A DNA stretch of 64,000 nucleotides from a virus: IMG/VR virus record IMGVR_UViG_3300045902_000666, positions 1-64,000 of that record; one strand, given 5' to 3'. Position numbers and translations under genes: made by a program. Shown piece after piece: positions 7,246 to 54,489 of the stretch (within the stretch, counting starts at the first letter, position 1; each line of letters begins with the position of its first letter). Below the pieces are notes generated by a model. The model was not told the origin of the DNA, ran no database searches, and saw nothing but the letters and a program-made list of their open reading frames with translations.

Positions 7246-7282
7246 GAAAACAAGAAGGCCCGACTATTTCTAATCGGGCCTT
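7246..7282 (-). terminator. attenuator terminator of tRNA operon 1
   Basis: AAGGCCCGA/TCGGGCCTT stem then CTTGTTTTCT. Confidence 0.75.
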
Positions 7283-7321
7283 GGTATATCTTATTGGCTT
7301 ATTTAGTCTATTCTATGAGCC

Positions 7322-7426
7322 TCATGATTTGTTACCTACATACCCGAATTCCACAACGTGTTTATTAATATTCGTATTGAATATCGTTGTGTTTTTATTA
7401 ATGGTATGTTTTTTAGTTACAAACAT
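7322..7426 (-). CDS. leader peptide 1, MFVTKKHTINKNTTIFNTNINKHVVEFGYVGNKS
   Basis: Lies between promoter and terminator; 19 of codons 4-23 are T/K/H/I/N. Confidence 0.8.
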   Translation of the reverse strand: MFVTKKHTINKNTTIFNTNINKHVVEFGYVGNKS

Positions 7427-7450
7427 GATTTCTCTTTTTTTCTTTTATTC

Positions 7451-7510
7451 TAAATAGTTAAAAATTTTCTTTTTCGTGAACAATTGTACGCAAAGATATG
7501 AAAAAGGTTC
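7451..7510 (-). promoter_or_regulatory. promoter block of tRNA operon 1
   Basis: GAAC-N16-CGTACAA, TATCTTTG and CTATTTA; 7451-7494 matches 30953-30996 at 43 of 44 nt. Confidence 0.75.
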
Positions 7511-7580
7511 TGTTAAATGCAAGAAAAAAGTGAATTTTTTTTTATTTTCTTTATAAATCGCTGAAAATTAGAGTTTTATT

Positions 7581-8151
7581 TTACCAATTCATCCAATAAA
7601 AATCTTCAGCCTCATCATCATCTAATATAAATCCGAAGTACTTTTCTCTTTTTACAGTAGTTTCAATTACTTTGTTTTTTCCCGGAAGATATACCCAAGT
7701 ATGTTGTCTCCAAGTTTTGTCATCTGGTGATAATGCCCATCCAGTAACAATTTTCACCTCATCCGTTCCATGTTCATCAGAGTAGTTCTTCCAAAAACAA
7801 GAAGAGTTGGTATGACACTTACTATCTCTCATTTTTACAACTTGAGATTTTTTCCCATCAAACACTTGGCCTCTCGTTAATATTTTCTCTATGTCTTCTT
7901 CAAATGTTTCTGCTACTTTTTCACCACCCAAAGATAATAATTTTTCTTTTAACTTATCAAAACCTTTTTGAGATTCTTCGTTTATTTCCGCTTTTTTAAC
8001 ATACCAGCCAGATTCTTTTCTCAATAAAACCATAGAGCCAGAGCGTGGCTTTTCTATATATATTTTCCAAATATCTTCTTGATTTTTATAATTTTTTATA
8101 AGTTTCTTTACTTCTTCAATATCAGATGTAGAAACTGTTGAAATATATTTA
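7581..8151 (-). pseudogene. 5'-truncated gene abutting the IS1595 left end
   Basis: ORF-track N-terminus comes from inside the IS; remainder has CHxN..GWAL..W.QHTW. Confidence 0.5.
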
Positions 8152-8275
8152 GGTAGATATATACCTATTAATACAAGATAAATCTTTATTGTATTGAAAA
8201 TAAGATATTTATAAGACATTTTAAGATAAAATAATTCATTTCAATTATTCTGTGATATTTATTTAGAAACAGAAT

Positions 8276-9205
8276 ATGATTCAGTTACAAAAGTTCAACA
8301 CATTACTCGAACTACTTACCTACTTCAAAAAAGAAGATACATGCAAAAAGTATCTGGAGAAGATTCGTTGGGAAGGTAAATTCACCTGTCCTTATCTTGA
8401 GTGTCAGCACAACAAGATATATAAATGTAAAGGTCGTTATAAGTGTGCAAACTGTGAACGTATATATAGTGTTCGTGTAGGTACAATTTTCGAGGACTCA
8501 AAGATTTCTTTACAAAAATGGTTTGCTGCAATCTATATTGTCACATCTCATAAGAAAGGAATGTCATCTACGCAATTAAGTAAAGACCTTGGTATAACAC
8601 AAAAGACAGCTTGGTTTATGTTACAACGTATAAGAACAGCATTTGGTTTGAATCAAGGTAAAGATAAGCTATCTGGAACATGTGAGGCAGATGAAACATA
8701 TATTGGTGGTAAAGAAAAGAATAAACATAAAAATAAAAGAATCTTCGGTACACAAGGTAGAAGTGTAAAGACTAAGATTCCAGTTGTGGGTATCTTAGAA
8801 CGTGGTGGTGAATTAAGAGCCAGTGTTGTTAAGAACACCACCAGAAAACACTTACAAGCATTTATCAATGAACATTTAGAAGAAGGAAGTAAGATAAACA
8901 CGGATGAATGGAAAGGATATAGAGGGTTGTCTAAAACCTTTGACCATAAGTTCGTGAAGCATAACACAGGTGAATACGTGCAAGGTGATGTGCATACGAA
9001 TACACTGGAAGGCTTCTGGTCATTACTGAAGAGAGGTTTGTCTGGAATCTATCATACTATTAGTAGAAAACATTTGCAGAAATATGTTGATGAGTTTGTA
9101 TTCAGATATAATACGAGGTTGGAGACAGGAGCGGAGAGGTTTAATAGATTTCTTAGAAATATCTCTACCCAGATAAAATATAGAGATTTGATTATAGATT
9201 TTTAG
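8276..9205 (+). CDS. IS1595-family (ISXO2-like) DDE transposase
   Basis: Zn ribbon, HTH, EADETYIGG, TDEW, HTNTLEGFW, YVDEFVFRYN. Confidence 0.95.
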   Translation: MIQLQKFNTLLELLTYFKKEDTCKKYLEKIRWEGKFTCPYLECQHNKIYKCKGRYKCANCERIYSVRVGTIFEDSKISLQKWFAAIYIVTSHKKGMSSTQLSKDLGITQKTAWFMLQRIRTAFGLNQGKDKLSGTCEADETYIGGKEKNKHKNKRIFGTQGRSVKTKIPVVGILERGGELRASVVKNTTRKHLQAFINEHLEEGSKINTDEWKGYRGLSKTFDHKFVKHNTGEYVQGDVHTNTLEGFWSLLKRGLSGIYHTISRKHLQKYVDEFVFRYNTRLETGAERFNRFLRNISTQIKYRDLIIDF

Positions 9206-9261
9206 AAAATATAGTTGCAACATTTAAGATAAATGAGTATTTTTGCTTAAAAAGGTCTTAA

Positions 9262-9504
9262 ATGGAAAAACTCATAAATAAATGGAAATTAAACAAAGGT
9301 CTTCTGGCGAAAAAAATGGATATGCCACTGGGAACCTTCTGCAATAAATTATCATCAAAACACACGACCCAGTTCAGTGATGCGGAGTTGGTGAAACTTA
9401 AAATGGTCTTAAAAGAATTACAGGATGATATTTTCAATGAAGTGGAGATTGACTTCAATGATGCTCTGAAGACAGTTGTTGATTCTAAAAATAGAAAAAA
9501 ATAG
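9262..9504 (+). CDS. small HTH-like protein
   Basis: LNKGLLAKKMDMPLGTFCNKL helix-turn-helix pattern. Confidence 0.6.
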   Translation: MEKLINKWKLNKGLLAKKMDMPLGTFCNKLSSKHTTQFSDAELVKLKMVLKELQDDIFNEVEIDFNDALKTVVDSKNRKK

Positions 9505-9516
9505 TTCTAAAATTAT

Positions 9517-12500
9517 ATGCGTGACCAAAGGACACTGGACTTCTTAAAAAAATTAAAAGATAATAATGTTTTAGATAATAATTATGATTATTCTAAAACT
9601 CTATATATTGATGCTACAACTAACATAACCATTTTTGATGAGAATGGTTTTGAGCATTCACAAAATCCAAGGGCACATCTTAAGGGATTTAAACTATCAA
9701 TATTATCTGCTGTTAATAAAACACAATATTTTATTGATAGGTTAAAACGAACAGGTAACTTCAATCCTAAGTACGATTACTCAAAATTAATTTACGTCAA
9801 TAGTGATACAAAGCTAATAATTATTGATGAAAATGGATTTGAACATGCTATGATACCTAATAGTGTAGTAAATGGAAATCAGTTAAACATTAGAAGTGTG
9901 GTTGATAAGGCTAATTTTTTTATTTTTAAATCTAAATTAATACATGGAGATAAGTATGATTATTCTAAGGTAAATTTTGTTGACACAACAACCAAAGTAA
10001 AAATTATATGTCCAGCACATGGTGAATTTGAACAAACACCAAATGGTCATATGTCTGGTCGTAATTGTAATAAGTGTGGCGATTTGATGATTGGTAAAAA
10101 ATTAAATCGAGGAAATGAGAAATTTATTAATGAAGCTAAAAAAATACATGGTGAAAAATATGATTATTCATTAGTCAAATACATTAATAACAATAAAAAA
10201 GTAATAATTATTGATGAAAATGGATTTAAACATAGCCAGCGACCTGCTGCTCACTTAGAAGGTAGAACTCTTTCAATACAATCTGCTATGAATAAAACAG
10301 AATACTTTGCTGCAAAGGCTAAGTTAGTTCATGGAGATAAATATGATTATTCATTGGTAAACTACATAAATAATAGTACGGAAATATCCATATTGTGTTC
10401 AAAACACAATGAATTTAAACAAACTCCAGCTGGTCACTTGACTGGTGCTGGCTGCCCAAAGTGTTCAGGACAAAATAAAAACACTTCCGATTTAATTAGT
10501 GAATTTTTGAAGATACACGGTAAAAAATACGATTATTCCTTAGTAGAATATATTAACAACAAAACAAAGGTCAAGATTATTTGTCCGACTCACGGTGAAT
10601 TTGAACAACTCCCAAGTAATCACAAAAAAGGTGTTAATTGTCCTAAGTGTACTGGCTCTTTTATGGATACCCAATATTTTATCGAGAAAGCTAATTTAGT
10701 TCATGATAATAAGTATAATTACTCACTGGTGGAATATTCTGGCAAAGAAGGTAAAGTAAAAATTATATGTCCAGAACATGGTATTTTTGAGCAAACAAGT
10801 GGTTCACATTTAAATGGTAGTGGTTGTCAAAAATGTGGAAAACAATTCATGGACACAGAATATTTTATTGAGAAAGCTAAATTAGTTCATGGAGATAAAT
10901 ATGATTATTCAGATGTTATATATGTCAGTGCGATTAAACCAGTTAAATTAAAATGTTTAGAAAATAATCATTTTTTTGAACAATCTCCAAACTCACATTT
11001 AAATGGTACTGGTTGTCCAAAATGTGTTGGGAGAAATAAGACTACCGAAGAATTTATTGAAGAGGCTAAACAGATACATGGGAATAAATATAACTATTCT
11101 TTAGTTGATTATTTGAACACTTCAGAAAACATTAGAATAATCTGTAATACACATGGTGAATTTTTACAAAAACCAGTCCATCATCTGAGAGGTCAGGGAT
11201 GTCCAGTTTGTGGAAATGGGTTTATAAAAAGCTTTAAAATTTCATTGATAAATTCACTTTCACAGAGTGATTTATTTTCTATGGACCCATTTGAAATTTA
11301 TACTATTATCGGTCAAGGTAAGCTTCCAATTGATTTTGGAGTACTTGCAAATTCGGATGCTGGTTCGGAAGAAAGATTAACAACACTTCAAGAATTAAAA
11401 GATAAATTTTCTACTGAAGATAATAATGAGAATGAGTGTATTGAGGAAGAAACTATAACATCTGAATGTGAAGAAATAAGTGTGGTAGATGATATTGATA
11501 CAGAGGTCACCAACACAAAAACACAAGAAGAAACAAAACCAGAACTGCCAAATGTGAATATTCTTGGCGACCTTCATTCATTAGATAATAGTATCTATGC
11601 TACAATGGATAAGGAGGCTCTTGAAAGTCTTATCCAGTACAAATTGCGTAAGCTATGGAATAATGTTTTGAATGATGATATTACGGTTGATGAGATTAAA
11701 TCTGACACTGGTGGCGAATACTTCACACAAATCAAGAATTTGTTTTTGGAAGAATATGAAGAAGTAATCGCATATAAACCTAAACCAGGTTACAAGTTTC
11801 AATACCAACCAAACTTAATGCAAAAGTTAACTGTTATCAGACTATTAAAAAACAAGTCATATGGTAACTGGTCTGGAACAGGTGCTGGTAAAACTCTTTC
11901 GTTTATTGTGGCCAGTCGAGAAATAGATTCAAAACTTACAGTTGTTATTGCATTAAATTCTACTATAGAGCAAACATGCAAAGCTATTAAAAGCGTATAT
12001 CCAAACAGCCAAGTTTTTACTGAATATACAAAAGGGTATGTCTTTGATAGAACCAAACATAATTATCTTGTTCTTAATTATGAGAAATTCCAACAAGAAT
12101 ATTCAGAAGAATTGTTCCAAGACTTAACGAATAACAATCAAATTGATTTTGTTGTTATTGATGAAGTACATAATGCAAAGCAAAGACAAGAAGATGATGA
12201 GTCTATCAGACGTGGGGTTTTAAATAGATTACTTGGTAGAATTCGAGCTAACAACAAGGATTTATATAGTCTTGTTATGTCTGCTACGCCTGTCGTTAAT
12301 AATCTATATGAAGCTAAGTCTTTATTGCAATTATTGACTGGCTTGGATTATAACGATATTGATACAAGAAGAACGCTGCCAAATGCATTAAAGGTGTTCC
12401 AACAACTTATTTTGAATGGCTTAAGATTTATTCCGAAGTATGATATAGAAATAAATGAGTTGACAGGCTCAAATATGAGCAATCTTAATATTGATGGCTC

Positions 12501-17789: not shown

Positions 17790-18595
17790 AGTAATAAGTC
17801 TGAGATTACAACTCATTATAACGGTCTTTGCTAAGATTATCCCTTTTGTGGTTCCTTAGGCTATCCACAATCCTTTCGGATTGTATCCGTCAGTCACGAT
17901 TACTTACGGTAATCAATCTTGTCGTCAAGCTTACTCTACAGCTACTTAACCTACACCTGTACGGCCATACCGATGCATGCCTTTCACGATAATCGTCATC
18001 TCTCTTGCGGAAAGACAACTCCCTAATTCGTATTGCTACGTTAGGGTCTGAGTGACCTTTCAGCTCCAACGCCCATAAGTCTTGGGCGATAATTAATTAA
18101 ATGTAATTGCCTAACATTTTTTTAAAATGTAAGATGTAATGATAATTGCAAAGAGAGACGTGCTTATGGGTGTCAGCTCAATTCCGTTGCCAGAACCAAA
18201 TACTGATACGCCCCTCTGTGAACTTTAGCATGTTCACCCTCAACCCCGATTACTTTTTTACTTGTCTGCTCTTCCGAACCTACAGAGGTCTTTAATAACC
18301 GAAAAAAGGCAAGTGACACAAAGCATTCAGTTTGCTAAACCTCACACTTTATATCTCGGATTTTCTTGTTGACCCATTTCTAAGCCTCAATCACCAGCTA
18401 TCACTACTGATGATGAATCGGAAGCCGTTCTGACGTTCCTATCATACTATCCTAATGTCTAGATGTCCTATTTGGTTTGCACCAACAAGGCGAAAGTTTG
18501 CACCTCCCTTTTATTCCCTATTACTAGAGTTTATCTTCTCTTGCGAGCTTGTCTGAACTTTCGTTCAAACGTGACCCTAAACAGCCACAAATATC
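17790..18595 (-). ncRNA. large structured ncRNA, GOLLD-like
   Basis: ~800 nt, no credible ORF, GC-richer, many GNRA-capped hairpins, own promoter, boxA-like motif and terminator, next to a tRNA. Confidence 0.65.
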
Positions 18596-18693
18596 TTAAC
18601 TCAAAGAACTTTCTAAAATTATGTTGCAAACATAATAACTTGCAAAATAAAAGTCAAGTTTTTTTTAAAAAAAATTGAAAAAAAATTTTTTGC

Positions 18694-18767
18694 CCGCCCC
18701 AGTAGGCCTCGAACCCACGACCCTCGGACCTAGGAGACCGATGCTCTACCAACTGAGCTATGGGGGG
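18694..18767 (-). tRNA. tRNA-like gene with enlarged anticodon loop (Arg-CCT?)
   Basis: Normal D and T arms; loop CTCCTAGG. Confidence 0.6.
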
Positions 18768-18772
18768 AATTG

Positions 18773-21366: not shown

Positions 21367-23769
21367 ATGAGCCCAGAAGAAAAAGAACTCAGAAATCACA
21401 TCAGAAAAATGCTTGAGCAAAATAAAAAAGCACTTAAAGAAAATTTTGATGATGAGGATGAAGATAATTTAGGTATTTTTTCAGATTATGATGAAGATGA
21501 AGCTTTTGGTGGCGAGGCTATGAAAGCTGCTATGGCTGATATTAAATCTTCAGAAGGTGAATTTGAACCTCTTGGAAAGAGTAAATTTGAAAAGAATTTA
21601 GATATAGACCAACTTAAACAAGATTTGTCTATTGCTAAATTAAATTTGCCATCTGAAAAAGAAAAACTTAAGCCTATAAAAAAACAGTTAGATGTAAGAT
21701 ATAATCAAGAAAAGAGATTTGGCAAAGGTTCTATGAATGAAAGTCACAAAATTGATGTATCTGACCCTTTAATTGATAAATTAAAAGAAAATGGTTTTAA
21801 TCCAGAATTAATGCCTTGGGGTAGTGTTGAGATTGATATTGATACACCTCATGGTAAAGAAACTATTTCATATCATAAAATACAAGTTAAAACTCCTACA
21901 TACTTAATAAACAACAAGGGTGAAGAAAGTATGTACACAGCAAATTTATTATGGGATTCTCCATTTGAAGGTGGTGGTATAGAAAAAGAACCAAATGTAT
22001 TTTTTGGAACTTTGGAAGATGCTATTAAATTTGCTTTAGATAGAAAAAATGAAGCTCAAAAAGAAATGGATGCGCTTCCAAAATTATCTACTACATTTAA
22101 ACCAGAAGAACCAGAAGTTGGTCCAAAGATTGTTGGAAAAATTGATTTAACTGGAATGGATACAAAAAGATTTGAAGAAGGTGCTGAAGAAACAAATATA
22201 ATTCCAGAAAAAATATTAAACTACATGTATTTCTCATTTGGTTCTCATTTTGGTGACCCAGATGAAATTGAAATTAATGCTGGAGATAAATATGGTGTTG
22301 GTAAACAAATGATAAAAAATATTGGTACTCCTTCTTATAATTCAGAAGACAAAACAATGGATATTCCAATTGAGTTTACTTACAATGAAATGAATGATAG
22401 GTCTACTATTTATAAAGTTCCTTATTTCGTTTGGAAAAAAATAAAAGATGGGACTTGGAAAGGTAAGCCTCAAGGTAGGTTTACGCAAAGTATTGATTTA
22501 AATGAAGGTAATGTAAATCCAGATACAAAAATTAATAGACCGAAAGATGCTGAAGGACAACCAATAACTTTAAAAGCCAGAGTTGAACATTTGAAAAGTG
22601 GAATCGCAGGGAGAGTTGAGAGATTCGTAATTGGTGATGATGGAAAAATAAATGTAAAGGTTGATTGGATTGGGGATTCTCTTATGTCAATGAAACTTAA
22701 ATCAGTTGTTCCTACTACTGATATTGTAGTAAGAGATTCAACTAGAGTTGTTAGAGAAGAAGAGGGAGAGGCATATCCTGAACAAAGCAGATATATGTTC
22801 TTTGGAAATTTACAGCAAATAAAAAGACAAGCTGAAATCATGTTAAATATGAATGAAGATGAAATAAACAACATCTTAGAAAATGGACATGATTGGGCTC
22901 AGGACCATGTTGCTACTGCTAAAGAAAGTATGGACCAAGTTTTTGATTTTTTAATGAATGAATTAAAAGATGAAAAAAAGGAAGAGGAATTAGACGAAGA
23001 TTCATTAGCATTCAGACATAAAGCTGGCCAAAGAGAAAAAGCAAGAAAAGATATTCCGTTGGGAAAACATGCTCCACATTCTCAAGCTGCATTAAATGAA
23101 AATTTTGATTATAGTAAAGAGGAATTATCTCACCACTACAACCAAGAAGCTGAAAATAACCCTCAATGGTTCGTAGATGATAATGGAGAAATTCAAGTAG
23201 ATACTCCAGATTCAATTTCTAAAACTTATACTTACACAATTAATCTAGATGAAAGAGGAGAGTTTAATGCTGATGTAAGAAATGAAGAAGGAAATACTGT
23301 TTTTGAAATAGATGGTTACGATATTTTTGAAGATGGATTCATGAAACACAAACATGACCATGAAGGTTTAAAGAAACATCTTATAAATTTAGGTATAATA
23401 AATCCTGATGATAAATTAGAATGTACAGAAACAGGTGAAATAGCAGAGAAAGAAAACAAGGAACCAGAAATTGAAAGTGTTATTTTTGAAAAATTAAACA
23501 GTGAAAAAACAGATTATACTTATATGCACCCAAGTAGTTTTACAAGAAATCAGATAAACGAAACTCATAAAAAACTTTTAAATCTTGTAAAAGAAAACTA
23601 CATGAGCTTTGATGTTGATGGTGGTAAAAACTATTATTGGTTAACAGAAAAAGGTAAAAAATTAGATTTAGAAAACTTTAAAAAAATAATGAAAGAAGGT
23701 AAAAAATCTAATGAATATAAAGATGCTGGTTTTTTGAGAAGCAAGGACATTGAGGACAACTTTTCTTAA
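21367..23769 (+). CDS. acidic multi-segment putative virion-internal protein
   Basis: 800 aa; LRNHIRKMLE start and repeated hydrophobic-x-E junctions. Confidence 0.75.
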   Translation: MSPEEKELRNHIRKMLEQNKKALKENFDDEDEDNLGIFSDYDEDEAFGGEAMKAAMADIKSSEGEFEPLGKSKFEKNLDIDQLKQDLSIAKLNLPSEKEKLKPIKKQLDVRYNQEKRFGKGSMNESHKIDVSDPLIDKLKENGFNPELMPWGSVEIDIDTPHGKETISYHKIQVKTPTYLINNKGEESMYTANLLWDSPFEGGGIEKEPNVFFGTLEDAIKFALDRKNEAQKEMDALPKLSTTFKPEEPEVGPKIVGKIDLTGMDTKRFEEGAEETNIIPEKILNYMYFSFGSHFGDPDEIEINAGDKYGVGKQMIKNIGTPSYNSEDKTMDIPIEFTYNEMNDRSTIYKVPYFVWKKIKDGTWKGKPQGRFTQSIDLNEGNVNPDTKINRPKDAEGQPITLKARVEHLKSGIAGRVERFVIGDDGKINVKVDWIGDSLMSMKLKSVVPTTDIVVRDSTRVVREEEGEAYPEQSRYMFFGNLQQIKRQAEIMLNMNEDEINNILENGHDWAQDHVATAKESMDQVFDFLMNELKDEKKEEELDEDSLAFRHKAGQREKARKDIPLGKHAPHSQAALNENFDYSKEELSHHYNQEAENNPQWFVDDNGEIQVDTPDSISKTYTYTINLDERGEFNADVRNEEGNTVFEIDGYDIFEDGFMKHKHDHEGLKKHLINLGIINPDDKLECTETGEIAEKENKEPEIESVIFEKLNSEKTDYTYMHPSSFTRNQINETHKKLLNLVKENYMSFDVDGGKNYYWLTEKGKKLDLENFKKIMKEGKKSNEYKDAGFLRSKDIEDNFS

Positions 23770-24546: not shown

Positions 24547-24582
24547 AAATATAAAGGCTCCATTTGGAGCCTTTTTTTATTG

Positions 24583-24666
24583 TAGCACTGGTCGGACTCG
24601 AACCGACAATACCGTGAGGAACCTGCTTATGAGGCAAGCACAATTACCACATCTGTTCACAGTGCT
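24583..24666 (-). tRNA. tRNA with CAT anticodon (Met) and long variable arm
   Basis: CTCATAA loop; AGCACTG/CAGTGCT acceptor. Confidence 0.75.
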
Positions 24667-24824
24667 ATGCAAGAACAGTTATTTATTCTTTCTGGTACTT
24701 ATTGAATGAATCAATAACCAAACTAAAAGAACAACTGGAATGGCTATACCTATTAAAACTTCTACATCCATAATTTATAAATCTACAAAAATTATTCCAC
24801 TATTAAAATTTACACTCCTTTTTG

Positions 24825-24897
24825 AGCGGAAGACGGGGCTCGAACCCGCCACCCTTAGCTTGGAAGGCTAATGCTCTACCAAATGAGCTACTTCCGC
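24825..24897 (-). tRNA. tRNA-Gly(TCC)
   Basis: Canonical, U73. Confidence 0.92.
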
Positions 24898-24925
24898 ATA
24901 AAGCAGAGATTTCTCTCTGCTATTT

Positions 24926-25270
24926 TTATTTTTTATCAGGGTATTTAGCATCCATTTCATCAATTACACTAAATGGAGACCCTCCGACACCTGAATAACG
25001 TATATCTTCAAATCCGTTTTCTTTTGTAATTAGAGAATCTCTTTCGTCAATAGCACCTCTATGCTTATCAAATCCTTTTTTATTCTCTATTTTACCTGTA
25101 GATGGATTATAACTTCCCCAATCTGCAGCCCTATCAGGACCTATTGGTTCAACGTAATACGTTTTCCCAGTTCTAATAGAATACACAATGAATCTACCTG
25201 TGTCATCACGACTTTCAAGAAACCTTTTCCTGAAGTCTCTAGTTTTTGTTACCCCTTTTTTCATAACCAT
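24926..25270 (-). CDS. hypothetical protein
   Basis: 114-aa ORF. Confidence 0.65.
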   Translation of the reverse strand: MVMKKGVTKTRDFRKRFLESRDDTGRFIVYSIRTGKTYYVEPIGPDRAADWGSYNPSTGKIENKKGFDKHRGAIDERDSLITKENGFEDIRYSGVGGSPFSVIDEMDAKYPDKK

Positions 25271-25294
25271 TTATTTATTTTGTTTTTCACCTCT

Positions 25295-25528
25295 TTAATA
25301 GCTGGGTGAATTTTGCTTTATTATTTTTAATATCTCTCTTCCATCTACAACTTCACATTTAGATTGTATTTCTTTCAATCTTTTTTTTGGTATATCATAA
25401 TGCTCTTTCCCTTTTTTATTATAGAACCAACATCTTTTTATACCTAAATCTTCTGCCATTTTATGTAAGTTCTCTATATTATAAGGAACACACACTAAAT
25501 GACGCTCATTGTCACAATAGTACTTCAT
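25295..25528 (-). CDS. DUF4031-like protein
   Basis: HL..LHKMAEDLGIKRCWF..HYDI. Confidence 0.65.
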   Translation of the reverse strand: MKYYCDNERHLVCVPYNIENLHKMAEDLGIKRCWFYNKKGKEHYDIPKKRLKEIQSKCEVVDGREILKIIKQNSPSY

Positions 25529-25533
25529 ATTTG

Positions 25534-25610
25534 AGTAAGTGATGGGGCTAGAACCCACGACCTTCTTAATGGCAATCAGATGCTCTAAGCCAAAACTGAG
25601 CTACACTTAC
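25534..25610 (-). tRNA. tRNA-Gly(GCC), somewhat degenerate
   Basis: TTGCCAT loop; T-loop TTCTAGC. Confidence 0.65.
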
Positions 25611-25663
25611 ATGAAGTGGATTGGGGTATTCATTCCCTTTTAGCCCACCCGCAGGGCATTTTG

Positions 25664-25738
25664 AGCAGAAGACGGGACTCAAACCCGCCTCTATTTCATC
25701 TTGGCAACGTTATGTACCACCAATTATGCGTTAACTGC
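25664..25738 (-). pseudogene. degenerate tRNA-Gly(GCC) overlapping the HNH stop codon
   Basis: T arm retained; acceptor and anticodon stems mismatched. Confidence 0.55.
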
Positions 25739-26230
25739 ATTTCTTTTTTCTCGTCTTTTTTGTCTACCATTCCCTTTATTAGCACCTCCCCATGTTTTAG
25801 TTAGAGAATGACAATTGGGGCATAAAAGTTTAAGATTTTTTATATCATTATTTTCTGAATTTCCATCTACATGTTCTATTTGAATTGGTATTTTTCCTGT
25901 AAATTTATTTACCTTATCCCATCCGCACTCCATGCATTTTTCCCCAAACTTAAAAATAAGATACCGTTTAAAAGTCTCTTCATGATAATTCAAGCATCCA
26001 GATTCTATTTTATAAAAAGTTTCCTTTTTTCTAAATTCACCTTGACATTTGTTACTACAATATTTACTGCTATTGCGTTTTAACTGTCCTCCACACTCAA
26101 TACATTCTCCATATTTTTTCTTTTCACGCTTAACATTATTGTATTTTGCTGCACAAGATGAATTACAAAATTTCTTTCCATATTGAATTTCTTCATTGCA
26201 ATTTTTACATTTTTTCGAATTATCAACCAT
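25724..26230 (-). CDS. HNH homing endonuclease
   Basis: IEHVDGN..N..NLKLLCPNCH. Confidence 0.9.
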   Translation of the reverse strand: MVDNSKKCKNCNEEIQYGKKFCNSSCAAKYNNVKREKKKYGECIECGGQLKRNSSKYCSNKCQGEFRKKETFYKIESGCLNYHEETFKRYLIFKFGEKCMECGWDKVNKFTGKIPIQIEHVDGNSENNDIKNLKLLCPNCHSLTKTWGGANKGNGRQKRREKRNAVNA

Positions 26231-26279
26231 TTTTTATTTTATAAATAGGTTGAAATTTCGAAATTCAAAGAACTAAATG

Positions 26280-26351
26280 AGCGGAGAAGGAGAATCGAAC
26301 TCCCGTTCAAACCTTGGCAAGGTCTTGTAATAGCCACTATACGACCTCCGC
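26280..26351 (-). tRNA. tRNA-Gly(GCC)
   Basis: Canonical, U73. Confidence 0.9.
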
Positions 26352-26356
26352 ATAAT

Positions 26357-26488
26357 AAAACAGGGTTAGGTGAGTAGTGTGTTTTTTGGTGATTTATCCG
26401 GGAGTTTAACCCAGACCTTTTTCTGGAAATGAAAATGCTCTTCACAGAGCTTATAAATCGAAGTAACACTATTTCTTGCCACTGTTTT
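26357..26488 (-). ncRNA. member of the Y-RNA-like family with degenerate T arm
   Basis: AAAACAGTGGCAAG..GTTACTTCG..AACCCTGTTTT. Confidence 0.55.
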
Positions 26489-26492
26489 TTTT

Positions 26493-26568
26493 AGCACTAG
26501 GTGAGATTCGAACTCACGGCAATTCCTGCTTGGAAGGCAGGCGCAATCGACCACTATGCGACTAATGC
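26493..26568 (-). tRNA. tRNA-Gly(TCC)
   Basis: CTTCCAA loop. Confidence 0.85.
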
Positions 26569-26574
26569 AAATAG

Positions 26575-26745
26575 AATGTAGGGATTTTTTTCGAAATGTA
26601 TTTTTTCTAAGCTGGGTTTAACCACTCCCCTACCTCCCCATTTGTAAATTTATAAATTGCGGGGAGGGCTGGATTCGAACCAACGTAGAGCCTAAGCTCG
26701 GCTGCTTTACATGCACGAAGTAACAATTCAAATTGCCACTACATT
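26575..26745 (-). ncRNA. Y-RNA-like RNA with permuted tRNA-Tyr-like domain
   Basis: Paired ends AATGTAG/CTACATT; GTA loop, variable arm, T arm, CCTCCCC-loop-GGGGAGG, then D arm. Confidence 0.65.
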
Positions 26746-26776
26746 ACTCAATACTTTCAAAGAACAACTTCTTCAG

Positions 26777-26870
26777 TGGAGACGAAGGGTATCAAACCCC
26801 TGGAGGACACAACCTTAGTTCCCTCACTGGTTTTCAAGACCAGCCACTTTAACCTAACTCGTGCATCTCC
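26777..26870 (-). tRNA. tRNA-Ser(TGA), degenerate T loop
   Basis: CTTGAAA loop, long variable arm. Confidence 0.65.
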
Positions 26871-26899
26871 AAATGCAGTTTATAGTTCTTCAACTTTTG

Positions 26900-26973
26900 T
26901 GGGAGTGGTCAGACTCAGGCGTAAGCCACTGGTTTTACAGACCAGCCCAACTCTCCAGCGTTGGCGCACTCCC
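26900..26973 (-). pseudogene. tRNA-Tyr(GTA) with deleted T arm
   Basis: 5' part nearly identical to 29655-29736; GTTCGA missing. Confidence 0.65.
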
Positions 26974-27063
26974 TTGATATGCGTTCACAACCAACTGCGC
27001 CACATACCGTTAAAGATTGTTTTTTATTTCATACTACGTTGGGACAATCACACCAACCTTGTC

Positions 27064-27142
27064 TGGAGAAGGGGATTCAAACCCCCAATGTCATAGACCA
27101 CAGATTTACAGTCTGCTAAGCAACTAATTGCTCAATACTCCC
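27064..27142 (-). tRNA. tRNA-Tyr(GTA), degenerate
   Basis: CTGTAAA loop; weak acceptor stem. Confidence 0.55.
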
Positions 27143-27196
27143 AATTTTACGAACTTTCTTTAGTTTTCAGTTTGCGGGTTCGTAATCCCATTTCTG

Positions 27197-27952
27197 CTAT
27201 TCATTATATTTTAATTTCCAGTTTTTAATTTTCTTTTTTAATTCATCAATTGTAATATCACTTCTTTTATATTTGCTCGAATTCTGCCTCTGCAGTATCA
27301 ATTTACAATTTGCTGGATGTGATATTAACTCTGGGTCTATATTGTTATCAAAACCATCTCTTATTGAATAAATATGGTCCCGACTTACTCCATCCAAATT
27401 ATTTCCCCTATTCACAGGTTTATACCAACCAAATTCCTCAATTAACTTAAAATTAAACTCATCTTCGTAATCTGATAAATTGAAAGAAAAAAGACAATCT
27501 CTTTTATATGCTTGAAATTCAGACATATTTTTTCTTTTAAATCCCCTTCTACAATCATCAGAACAAAATATTTTTCTACTCTTTTTTAAAAAATAAACAC
27601 CACAATTTTTACATTTTACATAAGTATCTTTTACAAGTTTTTCTCTTCTTTTTTTATTAGCCTCATTTTTAACCACATCAGACAATATTCTTGTTTTATT
27701 TGTGCTTTTAGCTTGACAGGAAGAATTACAAAACTTATTATTTCTTTTTTTATATGGTATTTCTTTACCACAATGTTTACAATAACGAGGGTTTTTCTGA
27801 TAATTATCTTTTTTAGATAATGCCTCCCCGTTTTTACTATAATCCCTGAGATATTTATTTACATAAATATTTCTACATGTCAAAGAACAATAGGTTCTGT
27901 TTTTTTCTACCAAAATATTACATTCAATATTTTTACATTTTTTATCACACAT
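27197..27952 (-). CDS. Zn-finger plus HNH-like homing endonuclease
   Basis: Three CxxC..FCxxxC units; SRDH..HPANC..N. Confidence 0.8.
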   Translation of the reverse strand: MCDKKCKNIECNILVEKNRTYCSLTCRNIYVNKYLRDYSKNGEALSKKDNYQKNPRYCKHCGKEIPYKKRNNKFCNSSCQAKSTNKTRILSDVVKNEANKKRREKLVKDTYVKCKNCGVYFLKKSRKIFCSDDCRRGFKRKNMSEFQAYKRDCLFSFNLSDYEDEFNFKLIEEFGWYKPVNRGNNLDGVSRDHIYSIRDGFDNNIDPELISHPANCKLILQRQNSSKYKRSDITIDELKKKIKNWKLKYNE

Positions 27953-28006
27953 ATTTTTATTTAAAAATATGTGGAAAATTTAAAAATCGAACTTAACGCA
28001 ATTTAG

Positions 28007-28082
28007 TGGAGGTGAGGAGATTCGAACTCCCATATGTCCCACGTTGCAAACGTGGCGCTTCAGCCAGTTGAGCCACACCCCC
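28007..28082 (-). tRNA. tRNA-Ala(TGC)
   Basis: TTTGCAA loop, G3:U70. Confidence 0.9.
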
Positions 28083-28229
28083 AAACAGAGGGAAGACTAA
28101 CCCTCTTTTTGTTTCCTGTGCACCAGAAACCTTAAGTCTTTTTGTGGAGAAATAGGGAGTTTAATCTTGGTCAGTCACTCCGTCAAGCTGTTACACAACA
28201 TTAACTGACTACTTAAATCCCCAATATAT

Positions 28230-50342: not shown

Positions 50343-51050
50343 CTACCAGTACATCCATCTTGCAGAATGACGATGGTTATATCTGTATTCATAATCATCA
50401 TAATCACCTACTTTAGAAAGGTTTCTTTTCAAAGCTTTCTTGTTGTAATTTCTGTCAGAACGAGTAAAATCCTTTCTATAATCTTTAGGAGGATTTCTTC
50501 TTCCATCATACCAGCCACCAACTGGCCAGAACTTTTTCTGACACAAATAACCCTTTCTTTCAGACTCCTCTTTAGCCAACACAGAATCAAATTCTTGATA
50601 GTGTGTAATCCAGCGAGGTTTGATTTTTTCTACGAAGTAGTAGCTAGGAAATGTACATTCATATATTTTTCTGAATGGACTCCAACGTCTACTCCAAGGG
50701 CTAATTGCTGAAAAATACTTTTTAACAGCAGGATGCAATTTTTCATAAGTTTCCTCAGAAATATCTCCAAATCCCGGATAAAGATATTCGTATTTTCCTT
50801 TGCTTAATTTTGTTCTGAAGGATTTATCTTTACAAAAAACCCTGTGTCCAACAAGTTTTAAGCATTCATAAAATACCCAAGCATCATCACGATTTTTGAT
50901 GTCTTCTCTAAGGTCATGAAATTTGTAATAGCCGTCTTTGTACGGTTTTTCAAGTTCAACCCAATTTTTATTGCGTTGAATTTTCCAGATTTGATAAATT
51001 TCTTTTTCAAGTCTGAGTTTCTCTTTGTAGAGAGGATGTTTTGAATTCAT
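50343..51050 (-). CDS. basic aromatic-rich protein under uORF control
   Basis: 235 aa; uORF 51071-51115 and hairpin before the ATG. Confidence 0.7.
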   Translation of the reverse strand: MNSKHPLYKEKLRLEKEIYQIWKIQRNKNWVELEKPYKDGYYKFHDLREDIKNRDDAWVFYECLKLVGHRVFCKDKSFRTKLSKGKYEYLYPGFGDISEETYEKLHPAVKKYFSAISPWSRRWSPFRKIYECTFPSYYFVEKIKPRWITHYQEFDSVLAKEESERKGYLCQKKFWPVGGWYDGRRNPPKDYRKDFTRSDRNYNKKALKRNLSKVGDYDDYEYRYNHRHSARWMYW

Positions 51051-51070
51051 TGGCGTTTAAGTTTATTTAC

Positions 51071-51115
51071 TTAAATCGCCAAAACTCCTCCACAGCTATT
51101 TTTACGAATGTTCAT
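51071..51115 (-). promoter_or_regulatory. leader uORF MNIRKNSCGGVLAI
   Basis: TTGGCGATTTAAGT/ACTTAAACGCCAA hairpin ends at the downstream ATG. Confidence 0.65.
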
Positions 51116-51190
51116 AAATCAGTTATTTTTTATAAATATACAAATTTTGTCAATTATACGCAAAACAATAATAAAGGTTCCTTTTTTTTG

Positions 51191-51264
51191 TGATTCCGAT
51201 AGGACTTGAACCTACAACCCTCTCCTTAGGACGGAGTAGCTCTATCCAGTTGAGCTACGGAACC
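51191..51264 (-). tRNA. tRNA-Arg(CCT)
   Basis: GTCCTAA loop. Confidence 0.85.
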
Positions 51265-51265
51265 A

Positions 51266-51550
51266 TTAATTTTGAGAATCCTGAATATCTTTCCAGATTT
51301 GTTTATCTATAACATGTTTTGGTGTTCTCTCATATTTCAGATATGAACACATTGGACAAGAACAAGGAGTGGAAGTCCATTTTAAAAATGTCCACATTTC
51401 CCCTTTTCTAATCTTGTCTCTAATCTCAGCGGAAGTCATTCTCTCCCATCCAAAATATTGATGCTGATTAGCAGGAACCCAAATTTTAAGACGCTTCTCA
51501 AATTTACATTTTTCTTTCCAGCGTCTTTCAGCTCTTTTTAAATTTTTCAT
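51266..51550 (-). CDS. small basic protein with CSCxxC motif
   Basis: RAERR..STPCSCPMC. Confidence 0.7.
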   Translation of the reverse strand: MKNLKRAERRWKEKCKFEKRLKIWVPANQHQYFGWERMTSAEIRDKIRKGEMWTFLKWTSTPCSCPMCSYLKYERTPKHVIDKQIWKDIQDSQN

Positions 51551-51653
51551 TTTACCTCAGATTTTGTCAGAGGTAGAGTGAATTGAGGACTTTCCTTATC
51601 ACCCTACCTCATCGTTTGAGGTAACGAGCTTTATATGTTTTGTGAGTATTCAT
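51551..51653 (-). promoter_or_regulatory. uORF MNTHKTYKARYLKR with four-segment translational attenuator
   Basis: Alternating TACCTC/GAGGTA segments give mutually exclusive hairpins. Confidence 0.7.
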
Positions 51654-51678
51654 AATTTTCTATAAATATACGACTTTT

Positions 51679-52884
51679 TTAAACATTATCCACTTCAAAA
51701 AGACCAATTTTTTTCATACCAACATACAAATCAGACATTAACTTGAAAAACATTACTTTGTTTTCTTCATTGCCAGATATATGATGTGTTGTATACAAAG
51801 AATTAATCTCTTTACATAATTCAACCAAAGCTTGAAATAAAACACTTGGGTTTAGAGCTGCTTTAGCTTTAATATAAGCGTACTTAATCTCTGGCTTGAT
51901 AAAATCATCAGCCGAATGGTTTAAATCAACTCCAGCACTTTTTAAACGAGCCATAGTATAACTTAAATATAATCCGGGAGAATTTTTATGATTCTTCATC
52001 AAACTCATATCAAAAGTCTTATCTGACTTTGGCGAGCCTCCCAAAATATATCCTGCAAAAATGTTATAGGCTAATTTTTCATCACCATTAAACTCTTCTT
52101 TTAATTCTTCCATAAAATCTGAAAGATAAACAACATTACGAAGACGTGTAGACATTTTACCATTTGCAGATGGAATCATTTTATTTGACTTCAATTTAAC
52201 AAGCCCCAATCCTACATGTGTTATATGAGGATAAACTTTATTTAAAAGTTTAAAATGATTCTCTTGTTCATATCCAGTCAAATAAAGAGTATCATCATTT
52301 AAAAGAGATGCCAATGCTAAATCCTGATAAAAATAAGAAGTAGAACCATCTTTTTTTATTACAACAATTTTTTCTTCTCCAGCCTCAACTATTTTTGTTC
52401 CTTCATATTCTCCTTCTCCATCTTTCAATTCACCTCCATATTTCATTTCGGAAGCAAAGAAAATTTTATCTACTTTATAGTCAAAATTTTTACAGTGTTC
52501 TTTGAATTTTTCCAAAGCTTCTTCTTTAGAAACATCACCAGTTAATGTATCTCCAAGCATAGAAACATATTCTTCAGCGACTCCAAGTTTCTGAAATGCT
52601 TTAGCTAAAATTAAATTTGAAAAGTGGCCAATATGTAAATGTTTATTAAGATTTGGGCTGAACCCATCCATGTATTTGAACTTTTTTTCCCCTATAAACA
52701 TTTTACCAAAATCTGTTTTTTCAGTAGGGAAAAAATTGGTGTATCCTTTTTCTTTTTGAATTATAAAATTGCAAGACTCTGCTAGGTTTAAAACTTCTTG
52801 TGTTGGTTCGCCAAATACACAAAACCCAAATCCTTTATTAAGATTAGAAGGTATTACTTTAAATAAACTCGAATCTGTTGACAT
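51679..52884 (-). CDS. argS: compact arginyl-tRNA synthetase-like protein
   Basis: SPNLNKHLHIGH, KKDGS..Y..QDLA, EQENHF, KMSTR, YLSYTMARLKS; true start MSTDSS after the tRNA-like gene. Confidence 0.8.
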   Translation of the reverse strand: MSTDSSLFKVIPSNLNKGFGFCVFGEPTQEVLNLAESCNFIIQKEKGYTNFFPTEKTDFGKMFIGEKKFKYMDGFSPNLNKHLHIGHFSNLILAKAFQKLGVAEEYVSMLGDTLTGDVSKEEALEKFKEHCKNFDYKVDKIFFASEMKYGGELKDGEGEYEGTKIVEAGEEKIVVIKKDGSTSYFYQDLALASLLNDDTLYLTGYEQENHFKLLNKVYPHITHVGLGLVKLKSNKMIPSANGKMSTRLRNVVYLSDFMEELKEEFNGDEKLAYNIFAGYILGGSPKSDKTFDMSLMKNHKNSPGLYLSYTMARLKSAGVDLNHSADDFIKPEIKYAYIKAKAALNPSVLFQALVELCKEINSLYTTHHISGNEENKVMFFKLMSDLYVGMKKIGLFEVDNV

Positions 52885-52899
52885 TGTTTTTGTTTTTTG

Positions 52900-52990
52900 T
52901 ACAGGAGGAGGGATTCGAACCCCCATTGGCATTGCTGCTTCAACTCCAGTTACGGATAAAAGTTTAGAAAACTTCCTCGGTTACACCTGC
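52900..52990 (-). tRNA. non-canonical tRNA-like RNA, TCT anticodon, no D arm, long variable region
   Basis: Same architecture as 2742-2823. Confidence 0.65.
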
Positions 52991-52998
52991 ATATTTTG

Positions 52999-53071
52999 TG
53001 ACCCGAACAGGAATCGAACCTGTGACCGACTGCTTAGAAGGCAGTTGCTCTATCCCCTGAGCTACCGAGCC
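52999..53071 (-). tRNA. tRNA-Arg(TCT)
   Basis: CTTCTAA loop. Confidence 0.92.
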
Positions 53072-53077
53072 ATATTT

Positions 53078-53263
53078 TTATTCATCTTCTAAATCTACAA
53101 TCACATAAAATTTGACTATAGATTTTTCTTTGAGAATTTTTAGTTTAGGATTTTCATATCCTTTTTCTAAAGCTCTCTTTCTATACTTTTCATAAACCGT
53201 ATCAAAATCTTTTTCAATTTCTTTACGTTTTATTTTTCCAATATAAAACATTCTCTGTTCCAT
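53078..53263 (-). CDS. small hypothetical protein
   Basis: Start MEQRMF immediately after tRNA-Ser. Confidence 0.5.
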   Translation of the reverse strand: MEQRMFYIGKIKRKEIEKDFDTVYEKYRKRALEKGYENPKLKILKEKSIVKFYVIVDLEDE

Positions 53264-53265
53264 CT

Positions 53266-53354
53266 CAGAGAGTGAGAGATTCGAACTCTCGCATCGTTTT
53301 ACCGACCTACTTCCTTTCCAGGGAAGCCCCTTACAACCACTTGGGTAACTCTCT
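53266..53354 (-). tRNA. tRNA-Ser(GGA)
   Basis: CTGGAAA loop, long arm, G73. Confidence 0.9.
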
Positions 53355-53365
53355 ATAAATTTATC

Positions 53366-53430
53366 GGCTGAAGAGTGGATTCGAACCACTAAATAGCTAG
53401 TACGTACTTAACTATCCTTCCAACTTCAGC
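53366..53430 (-). pseudogene. degenerate tRNA-like sequence
   Basis: Acceptor and T arm present; no normal D or anticodon arm. Confidence 0.45.
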
Positions 53431-53436
53431 ATCTTG

Positions 53437-53526
53437 CGGAGAGATAGGGATTCGAACCCTAGGTACAGGTTTACCCCGTACAACAGCTTAGCAGGCTGCC
53501 CCGATAGACCACTCTGGCATCTCTCC
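53437..53526 (-). tRNA. tRNA-Ser(GCT)
   Basis: CTGCTAA loop, long arm. Confidence 0.92.
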
Positions 53527-53537
53527 AAATTATTTCG

Positions 53538-53608
53538 CACAGGTGGAGAGATTCGAACTCCCGTCAACGGTTTTGGAGACCGCTATTCTACCACTGAACT
53601 ACACCTGT
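53538..53608 (-). tRNA. tRNA-Trp(CCA)
   Basis: CTCCAAA loop, G73. Confidence 0.92.
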
Positions 53609-53616
53609 ATATTTTG

Positions 53617-53706
53617 CACGTTGGGAAGGATTCGAACCCTCGAAGAGTTAATTACACTCTTTACAGTTTTGGAGACTGCTGCCTTCAACCACTCGGCCAC
53701 CAACGT
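53617..53706 (-). tRNA. tRNA with CCA anticodon and long variable arm
   Basis: CTCCAAA loop; AAGAGT..ACTCTT extra arm. Confidence 0.8.
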
Positions 53707-53712
53707 ATTTTG

Positions 53713-53797
53713 TGGAAGGTGTGAGATTCGAACTCACGGACCCCGAAGGGCCTCTAGTTTTCAAGACTAGTGCAATAGACCGCTCTACCAACCTTCC
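53713..53797 (-). tRNA. tRNA-Ser(TGA)
   Basis: CTTGAAA loop, long arm. Confidence 0.9.
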
Positions 53798-53800
53798 AAT

Positions 53801-54229
53801 TTATTTTTTCAATCTTTCAATTTCTTCTTTTATATCTTCTGTTTTAGTTCTCTTTCTTAGATGATAATATTTGTTCTTATCTATTTTTTCAAAGGGAATA
53901 AACCCATCAAAATGTTTATCAATCTGGTCTGCAAAATGTTCAATCCTTTCAAGGAATGGCTCAAATTGATAGTTAATCGTTAAGAACACTCCAAGTTTTT
54001 CATCCCACTGTGCAAGGCCATGATTGCGAAATCTTACACCCAAATAATATGCTCCATCAACAAGTTCTTCTTTTGGTATAGCTTCCTCAAGAAGTTTTTT
54101 TTCATGAAGCTTTTCTTCTTCATATTCTTCTTTCAAACGCTCTCTATTCTTTTGTGCATTTTCCTTTATTTCGTCTGCTTTTTTCTTACCAAACTTTTCT
54201 ACTAACTTATTATAATGTTCTTCTTTCAT
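53801..54229 (-). CDS. hypothetical protein, first gene after attenuator 3
   Basis: 142-aa ORF. Confidence 0.65.
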   Translation of the reverse strand: MKEEHYNKLVEKFGKKKADEIKENAQKNRERLKEEYEEEKLHEKKLLEEAIPKEELVDGAYYLGVRFRNHGLAQWDEKLGVFLTINYQFEPFLERIEHFADQIDKHFDGFIPFEKIDKNKYYHLRKRTKTEDIKEEIERLKK

Positions 54230-54255
54230 TTTTTTCTTTTTAAATTATTACAAAT

Positions 54256-54288
54256 AAAAAACCCCAGCTCTTTTGCAGAACCAGGGTT
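54256..54288 (-). terminator. attenuator terminator of tRNA operon 3
   Basis: AACCCTGGTTCT/AGAGCTGGGGTT stem then T tract. Confidence 0.75.
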
Positions 54289-54321
54289 ATACTGTTTTAA
54301 CTTAAATATCTTTTAGAAAAG

Positions 54322-54411
54322 TTACGACAATATAGATGCTGGTCCGCTAGTTCTTTTTGAACTCGAACTTGAACTTCTCCAAGACCATCTATATGTTGTT
54401 GTTACTTTCAT
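54322..54411 (-). CDS. leader peptide 3, MKVTTTYRWSWRSSSSSSKRTSGPASILS
   Basis: 12 of codons 8-20 are R/W/S. Confidence 0.85.
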   Translation of the reverse strand: MKVTTTYRWSWRSSSSSSKRTSGPASILS

Positions 54412-54418
54412 GTTTTTA

Positions 54419-54489
54419 TAAATATCAAAAATTTTCTTTTTTCTTGAGATTGTACGCAAAGATAATAAAAAAGTTCTACAAAAGTCAAG
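54419..54489 (-). promoter_or_regulatory. promoter block of tRNA operon 3
   Basis: TTGAC..GAAC-N16-CGTACAA, TATCTTTG, TATTTATA; homologous to blocks 1 and 2. Confidence 0.75.

Follow-up and report, generated by a model that had tools for sequence, protein, structure and literature searches.

The first 64 kb of a 101.7-kb record of a large, uncultured phage in IMG/VR, IMGVR_UViG_3300045902_000666 (these 64 kb are called the window below), carries three paralogous modules on the minus strand, each heading one of three blocks of tRNA genes. Judging from sequence comparison and a model of RNA pairing, each module is probably a leader-peptide (ribosome-mediated) transcription attenuator ahead of a phage tRNA operon, and we give this reading a probability of about 0.75. 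The anatomy of the modules, the match between leader codons and downstream anticodons, its conservation in related phages and the covariation of the pairing segments were observed directly. The reason why phages have tRNA genes has been debated for fifty years, and to our knowledge hardly anything has been described about how these genes are controlled.

The record has a CheckV completeness estimate of 37%, and the GC content of the window is about 30%. About 40 tRNA genes were called in the window with ARAGORN and Rfam. All have minus-strand orientation, and apart from a few singletons they are grouped in three main blocks. ARAGORN with lowered thresholds and introns returned mostly noise, and Rfam-backed calls alone were retained; the calls at 30314-30401, 30600-30735 and 52899-52990 are ambiguous. 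A first-pass annotation of this DNA had placed three modules with the same layout at 7246-7510, 30744-31025 and 54256-54489, and all three were confirmed there on the minus strand. In each, a promoter/5' untranslated region (5'UTR) block is followed by a short open reading frame (ORF), which contains a segment complementary to the 5' arm of the terminator, and then by the intrinsic terminator itself. The parts of the modules are as follows.

7437-7550, minus strand: promoter/5'UTR block of module 1, core TTTGCGTACAAT at 7483-7494 (alignment and motif scan)
7322-7426, minus strand: leader ORF 1, 34 codons, other two frames closed
7341-7348, minus strand: antiterminator segment of module 1, UUCGGGUA, pairing with GCCCGA of the terminator 5' arm
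7245-7282, minus strand: intrinsic terminator of module 1, 12-bp stem at 7255-7282 and U-rich tail to 7245
30940-31050, minus strand: promoter/5'UTR block of module 2, core at 30985-30996 (alignment and motif scan)
30805-30933, minus strand: leader ORF 2, 42 codons, rich in A/P/M/G/D/Y/S, other two frames closed
30833-30844, minus strand: antiterminator segment of module 2, GGGAGCGGGUUC, 10-11 bp with the terminator 5' arm (free energy, dG, -16.5; codon-shuffle P 0.003)
30738-30774, minus strand: intrinsic terminator of module 2, 11-bp stem at 30748-30774 and U run
54420-54515, minus strand: promoter/5'UTR block of module 3, core at 54449-54460 (alignment and motif scan)
54322-54411, minus strand: leader ORF 3, 29 codons, other two frames closed
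54339-54355, minus strand: antiterminator segment of module 3, including GGACCAG, which pairs with CUGGUUC of the terminator 5' arm (codon-shuffle P 0.008)
54250-54288, minus strand: intrinsic terminator of module 3, 12-bp stem at 54260-54288 and U run

The homologous promoter block described by the first-pass annotation was recovered as about 100 nt common to the three modules in the alignment, but its core is not specific to tRNA units. With at most one mismatch, the core was found at seven sites of the window, namely in the three modules and before ordinary genes at 673, 38650, 43735 and 51153. It is therefore a general promoter of the phage, the assignment as a promoter being made from conservation alone. 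The 5'UTR is A-rich and has no Shine-Dalgarno sequence, and its GAAAAA..ATTTTT..TATTTA block is kept in all modules.

For comparison we used a set of 12 modules from four phage records: three from the phage of the window (G000), five from G001, two from G002 and two from G004. An 11-12 bp GC-rich stem with a U run stands 23-40 nt 3' of the stop codon in all 12 (27-33 nt in the three modules of the window, whose GC-rich hairpins have dG values of -16.5 to -20.8). The gap between the terminator and the first gene behind it is too short for another promoter block, so the tRNAs would be reachable by read-through only; in module 2, a tRNA-like sequence begins 13 nt past the terminator stem. The terminators had been described as leading into tRNA clusters. 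This was the case, but a protein gene intervenes between the terminator and the first tRNA in module 1 (6939-7220) and in module 3 (53801-54229), and the blocks also carry endonuclease, RNA ligase and arginyl-tRNA synthetase (ArgRS)-like genes.

The amino acid composition of the leaders was compared with the tRNA sets of the blocks, which were taken from the gene calls alone: N, H, T, K and I for unit 1, A, P, D, Y, S, G and M for unit 2, and S, W and R for unit 3. With the initiator excluded, 21 of 33, 26 of 41 and 15 of 28 residues of leaders 1, 2 and 3 belonged to the set of their own block. The fractions expected from the long ORFs of the phage were 0.32, 0.32 and 0.12 (binomial P 1.6e-4, 4.7e-5 and 8.5e-8). 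When residues were shuffled among the three leaders, the observed 62 of 102 on the diagonal compared with 34.6 +/- 4.3, and none of 100,000 shuffles was as high (P <= 1e-5). Leader composition thus tracks the downstream anticodons as the first-pass annotation had claimed, except at some N-terminal residues that are taken up below. Each amino acid with a tRNA in a block is present in the leader of that block in the window. Its three sets (T/K/H/I/N, A/P/M/G/D/Y/S and R/W/S) had been said to barely overlap. The rare residues are indeed exclusive, with His and Asn in leader 1, Asp and internal Met in leader 2, and Trp and Arg in leader 3, but the sets overlap in Ser, because a tRNA-Ser(UGA) is found in both block 2 and block 3.

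The match extends to codons. Codons 4-23 of leader 1 are nearly all T/K/H/I/N, with Thr represented by all of its four codons, His and Asn by both of theirs, and Ile by ATT and ATA. Leader 2 contains the full set of four Ala codons and three codons each for Pro and Gly. Codons 8-18 of leader 3 read R W S W R S S S S S S; AGA is the sole Arg codon of this leader, and five of the six Ser codons occur in it. Among the 12 modules, 171 of the 178 matched codons are readable by anticodons of their own block under strict wobble rules; the Arg codons are all AGR, and the Arg tRNAs have the anticodons UCU and CCU. The number of distinct synonymous codons in the leaders was 63, compared with 51.5 +/- 3.0 predicted by genome usage, which indicates a more even sampling. 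The leaders seem, from their codons, to be composed so as to probe each isoacceptor.

The leader frame was the sole open frame in every module examined. As a look-elsewhere control, all 576 short frames of the record were scored against the three sets. Leaders 2 and 1 ranked 4th and 5th; leader 3, the frame of which is open into the promoter, was outside the length filter, and its P value would rank first. The unique feature of the modules is that the composition coincides with the promoter, the terminator and the correct tRNA block.

Related phages were reached via the protein adjoining module 1 and via a conserved 602-aa protein, and their IMG/VR sequences were examined whole. G001 (154 kb) is syntenic with the window at a protein identity of 30-75%. 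Three of its five modules are homologues of modules 1-3, in which the peptide sequences have diverged and the composition has been kept. A further leader of G001 ends in alternating Leu(UUR) and Cys codons and is followed by tRNA-Leu(UAA) and three tRNA-Cys genes, and an L/F/V/S/Q-rich leader precedes two tRNA-Phe genes at the contig end, along with an intron-containing third candidate for Phe and a Tyr call that is uncertain; from its leader, this block is predicted to extend beyond the contig end with tRNAs for Leu, Val and Gln. Modules 2 and 3 are present in G002 (89 kb), with two Ser tRNAs that were identified solely by eye. In G004 (17 kb, GC 40%, about 46% identity in the shared protein), the tRNAs are partitioned differently, as I/S/T and M/W. 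Its Ile, Ser, Thr, Ser, Thr block has a 21-codon leader upstream with the core S I V S I C T S T T S T, and the leader upstream of its Met/Trp block contains S-M-W. In a published 462-kb phage, LR756500.1, the His, Glu, Val, Trp and Leu tRNAs are preceded by a leader of 24 codons that contains H, W, E, L and V and is followed by a terminator.

The survey of relatives for upstream ORFs, with the match compared to shuffled pairings, had been proposed as a check together with the first-pass annotation. In G001, 70 of 171 residues matched against 33.8 expected (P <= 1e-5), and the P values were 2e-5 in G002 and 0.005 in G004, the last being carried by the I/S/T block; those of G000, G001 and G002 are not independent, because their modules are homologous. 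Homologous leaders differ in length by whole codons, and the open frame is kept. Leader composition tracks the tRNA content of the block across lineages even where the amino acid partition differs, and no other single argument for a functional match is as strong.

Exact and IUPAC scans of IMG/VR with the promoter block of the window, the pairing segment of module 1 and the promoter variant of G001 found G001 alone, and module 2 had no blastn match among INPHARED phages. A metagenome scan with the codon pattern of module 3 returned two relevant contigs, which were near-copies of the G001 and G002 leaders. Two more phages reached via the 602-aa protein (G003 and G005) had one tRNA each and were uninformative. 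A second candidate leader in LR756500.1, before Lys/Met/Phe tRNAs, was not significant and was not counted. In DNA contigs of estuary and wastewater runs, close strains span module 2, from which no inference was drawn; a look-up of RNA sequencing runs listed none that contains this DNA.

Two leaders terminate with TAG, at 23403-23516 of G001 (L013:3403-3516, minus strand) and at 5868-5933 of G004 (L052, minus strand), and both phages carry a tRNA with a CUA anticodon. Late amber suppression could lengthen these leaders toward the terminator and, in G001, into it.

We then analyzed the pairing between leader and terminator. The best partner of the terminator 5' arm was found in the 3' third of the ORF in all 12 modules (dG -10.5 to -16.5; codon-shuffle P 0.002-0.23). 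In a swap control against the arms of non-homologous modules, the own pairing beat the mean swapped pairing in 12 of 12 cases, by a mean of -3.7 kcal/mol (Wilcoxon P 2.4e-4). Compensated changes were observed in each of the modules 1-3: UCGGGU/GCCCGA in the window versus ACGGGU/GCCCGU in G001 for module 1, GGGAGCGGGUU/AACCCGCUUCC in the window versus GGGUGU/ACACCC in G002 for module 2, and GAGCCAGG/CCUGGCUC in G001 versus GAACCAGG/CCUGGUUC in G002 for module 3.

The effect of a translating ribosome was modelled by masking a 30-nt footprint at each codon, to see if the 5' arm finds an upstream partner while the 3' arm has yet to be made. With the A site on matched codons, the antiterminator was favoured in 11 of the 12 modules, and in these it fell once the last third of the ORF was covered; the fifth module of G001 (m5) showed no drop. 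The fall coincided with the end of the matched codons in the three modules of the window and in most relatives. The first-pass annotation had compared the modules to attenuation of the trp/his type, and the anatomy, the conservation and the covariation of the arms agree with this comparison; the trp-like 1:2 protector helix is the part that does not carry over clearly.

Our model is as follows. Transcription would start at the conserved promoter block, and a ribosome would load on the short ORF behind the A-rich 5'UTR. A fast ribosome would cover the pairing segment, which lies in the last third of the ORF, as the polymerase makes the terminator, so that the hairpin would form and transcription would stop before the tRNAs. 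If the ribosome is held on any of the matched codons, which act as a checklist, the segment would be left free to pair with the emerging 5' arm, no terminator would form, and read-through would transcribe the whole block, both the tRNAs and the embedded genes. Because the checklist codons are read by tRNAs of the same block, the output would relieve the signal. The simplest reading is therefore a negative feedback that tops up decoding capacity for the checklist codons, and we propose that it responds whatever the cause of the shortage, be it mismatch with host codon usage, host shut-off or tRNA cleavage. Of this model, we infer the translation of the leaders, the timing between ribosome and polymerase, and the regulatory response.

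If the leaders work in this way, tRNA genes would be regulated by the decoding speed of their own codons, and a textbook mechanism would gain a new class of targets. The leaders would be a direct read-out of the tRNA shortages that the phage expects. They would also be natural, compact multi-codon sensors with possible use as reporters of tRNA availability. The sorting of the tRNA genes into amino acid blocks with checklists of their own suggests that the blocks are independent regulatory units, which would explain the order of tRNA clusters in large phages.

Several points weigh against the attenuator reading. Besides the dependence among P values mentioned above, a few unrelated Ser-rich antisense frames score like leader 3 for the small S/W/R set, and composition alone is thus not unique. 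Some leader residues are unmatched: the N-terminal K/V/T of leaders 2 and 3, F/N/Y in the M/W leader of G004, which are unexplained, and Ile in the leader of LR756500.1. At 6-11 bp the antiterminator helices are short, and against codon shuffles several of them are individually non-significant. A trp-like 1:2 protector (pause) helix is not clearly supported in the folds; the minimum-energy fold of module 3 has a AUAUAGAUG/CAUCUAUAU helix, but folding four homologues to a consensus gave a weak result (-6.3 kcal/mol). In the model the ribosome-free state also favours the antiterminator, unlike in trp. Given these last two points, the logic of the switch is likely that brisk translation leads to termination and that a stall or no translation leads to read-through. 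Modules 1-3 of the window have 17-26 nt between the end of the pairing segment and the stop codon, so a ribosome parked at the stop codon leaves this segment uncovered and the model requires tight kinetic coupling. Finally, stalling is blind to the difference between a missing and an uncharged tRNA, and extra tRNA is useless in amino acid starvation.

The units behind the attenuators contain the following genes.

1518-7220, minus strand: unit 1, with the gene of a 93-aa basic protein; tRNAs for Asn (two), His (two), Thr (three), Lys (four) and Ile (two); endonuclease and RNA ligase genes; ends before the core at 673-684
24582-30735, minus strand: unit 2, with a degenerate tRNA-like element; tRNAs for Ala (ambiguous), Pro (three), Asp (two), Tyr (two), Ala, Ser, Gly (four) and Met; HNH endonuclease genes
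51190-54229, minus strand: unit 3, with a 142-aa ORF at 53801-54229; tRNAs for Ser(UGA), Trp (two), Ser(GCU), Ser(GGA) and Arg(UCU), an ArgRS-like gene and tRNA-Arg(CCU); ends at the core at 51153-51164

The promoter cores at 673-684 and 51153-51164 delimit units 1 and 3. Since unit 1 ends before 673, the tRNA-Met at 227-301 is a separate unit. At 300-370 (minus strand), tandem partial copies of the 5' half of this tRNA-Met precede its 5' part, with GCCTGTAGCTCAAGTGGTTAGAGC present twice and a third, diverged copy. Behind the core at 51153-51164, the region 51053-51164 (minus strand) has a 14-codon ORF and a hairpin without a U run that overlaps the start of the next gene (50343-51050); this ORF may be a translational leader of another kind.

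The 93-aa protein (6939-7220, minus strand), the first gene behind attenuator 1, is very basic and has an invariant KKEE(V/I)(R/K)NANRSLKKG motif. It is conserved in G001 and in P0001-P0003, three proteins from databases. No known family matches it, and a metagenome scan with its alignment gave no match. The 142-aa ORF behind terminator 3 had no match in an IMG/VR protein scan, and searches of PHROGs and Pfam gave no function for either protein. Minus-strand genes of homing endonuclease type (Endo VII, GIY-YIG/NUMOD3, and HNH with helix-turn-helix domains), at 1591-2001, 4998-5648, 6143-6709, 25724-26230, 27197-27952 and 29104-29625, are found among the tRNAs of units 1 and 2. The tRNA-like element at 30600-30735 (minus strand, about 135 nt), directly past terminator 2, combines good acceptor and T arms with an anticodon region that carries an insert of 54 nt. 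It received no Rfam call and is absent from G001 and G002.

Long tRNA paralogues of 79-91 nt with the same anticodon stand beside normal-length class I Lys, Thr, Asn, Trp and His tRNAs (3933-4023, 4544-4629, 6049-6139, 53616-53706 and 5698-5776 of the window, minus strand). In the four that were inspected (Lys, Thr, Asn and Trp; 86-91 nt), the variable arm is long and partly paired. Such long/short pairs are found in G001 for Lys, Thr, Asn, Ile, Cys, Ala, Asp and Trp.

Some of the embedded genes bear on a second reading, in which the same attenuator has a role in counter-defence: the leaders would sense cleavage or depletion of host tRNAs by anticodon nucleases and would induce replacement tRNAs together with repair and rescue genes. 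We regard this role as possible but doubtful. An RNA ligase gene (2063-2728, minus strand; Pfam PF09414, E 2e-9) is located inside unit 1 directly downstream of Lys and Ile(GAU) tRNA genes and shares the unit with four tRNA-Lys genes, and tRNA-Lys is the classical target of PrrC. The unit for Arg, Trp and Ser has an ArgRS-like gene, which encodes a 417-aa protein (51679-52932, minus strand) with weak matches to the ArgRS catalytic and DALR domains and is flanked by the two tRNA-Arg genes. A PTH2 peptidyl-tRNA hydrolase gene (58482-58874, minus strand; Pfam E 1.1e-6) has the same promoter/5'UTR block as the tRNA modules and no terminator. It starts with ATG AAG TAG, an amber codon at position 3 (58866-58868), and about 400 nt downstream on the same strand are a tRNA-Cys and a suppressor tRNA with a CUA anticodon (58020-58170, minus strand). 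Phage tRNAs are known to neutralise tRNA-targeting defences (PMC11464382 and PMC10264068).

The blocks, however, span about 15 amino acids, which is well beyond the targets of any known anticodon nuclease, and neither the host nor a defence system is known for this phage. Plain supply feedback explains the anatomy equally well. It is thus only tentatively that we consider the attenuators as the sensing arm of a counter-defence circuit, in which block-wise replacement tRNAs, the RNA ligase and the ArgRS-like enzyme would be made from the same transcripts, with the amber-gated PTH2 gene and the suppressor tRNA adjacent. If such a circuit exists, it would be a self-contained translation rescue that restores decoding capacity on demand.

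A protein or RNA of phage or host might instead bind the conserved 5'UTR block and cause antitermination, with the ORF being incidental or tuning RNA stability. The conservation of the block in all modules and its presence before the terminator-less PTH2 gene are consistent with such a factor. We consider it improbable, because it leaves unexplained that the ORF composition follows tRNA content across different partitions, that a single frame is open, that the matched codons end where a ribosome begins to cover the pairing segment, and that this segment covaries with the terminator arm. Chance or common descent, with the short ORFs being ordinary small genes or untranslated frames with terminators of their own and the tRNAs having unseen promoters, is disfavoured and very improbable: some unrelated short frames score similarly for the S/W/R set and promoters in this phage are only inferred, but the shuffle P values are <= 1e-5 in two genomes and 2e-5 in a third, lineages with other tRNA partitions have correspondingly different leaders, and the promoter block does not fit after the terminator, the module 2 tRNA-like sequence being 13 nt past the stem.

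The leader-peptide attenuator of the supply-feedback reading can be compared with known systems. The multivalent attenuators of enterobacteria (thrL for Thr and Ile, ilvL and ivbL for Ile, Leu and Val, and trpL, hisL, pheL and leuL) similarly have a short leader enriched in the regulatory amino acids, an intrinsic terminator and an alternative pairing with the terminator 5' arm that is chosen by ribosome position. The phage modules differ in that up to seven amino acids are covered per leader with synonymous codons sampled broadly, in that the pairing segment is inside the ORF upstream of the stop codon, in having no clear 1:2 protector helix, and in being phage-borne. The family has genes for biosynthesis or aminoacylation as its targets, whereas here tRNA genes with homing endonuclease, RNA ligase and ArgRS-like genes, and not biosynthetic enzymes, are found downstream. 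As read here, the modules work like the leader-peptide attenuator family, with a target class that is new.

Another system for comparison is the E. coli pheST (phenylalanyl-tRNA synthetase) operon, which is chromosomal and has the pheM leader attenuator, sensing one amino acid. As the phage modules are read here, both use leader attenuation of a translation component that serves the sensed codons, a feedback on supply. pheM, however, controls a synthetase, whereas here tRNAs are themselves the product and a single leader is matched to all the tRNA identities of its block. T-box riboswitches also use a codon-like specifier to make terminator read-through depend on the state of one particular tRNA, but they bind uncharged tRNA directly without translation, whereas the sensor here is a predicted translated ORF. 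A scan of the whole window at Rfam gathering thresholds found no T-box, the hits being only tRNAs and one GOLLD RNA. Phage tRNAs have been considered against tRNA-targeting defences in T5 versus PARIS (PMC11464382) and for anticodon-loop variants (PMC10264068). These sets are alike in sustaining translation when host tRNAs are limiting; as far as the accessible parts of the two papers go, they concern the tRNAs themselves, and no transcription control by a leader peptide was found described. A search of the full-text literature, the coverage of which leaves out many subscription papers, found no description of leader-peptide control of tRNA genes, phage or other, in agreement with the first-pass annotation, which knew of none for phage tRNA arrays.

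Other elements were noted in the window. Paralogous 'transposase' genes are located at 31317-32585 and 56479-57654, both on the minus strand (PHROG 506, E 1e-43 and 1e-119), and one of them is directly upstream of the promoter of module 2. A full-length GOLLD RNA was found at 17797-18216 (minus strand; Rfam RF02032, 187.9 bits), and another at L036:7937-8372 (minus strand). A tRNA with an 8-nt anticodon loop (CCUA) is located at 18692-18768, about 480 nt upstream of the GOLLD RNA of the window and on the same strand. The same pair of a GOLLD RNA and an odd tRNA, the latter at 9929-10003, is present in G002.

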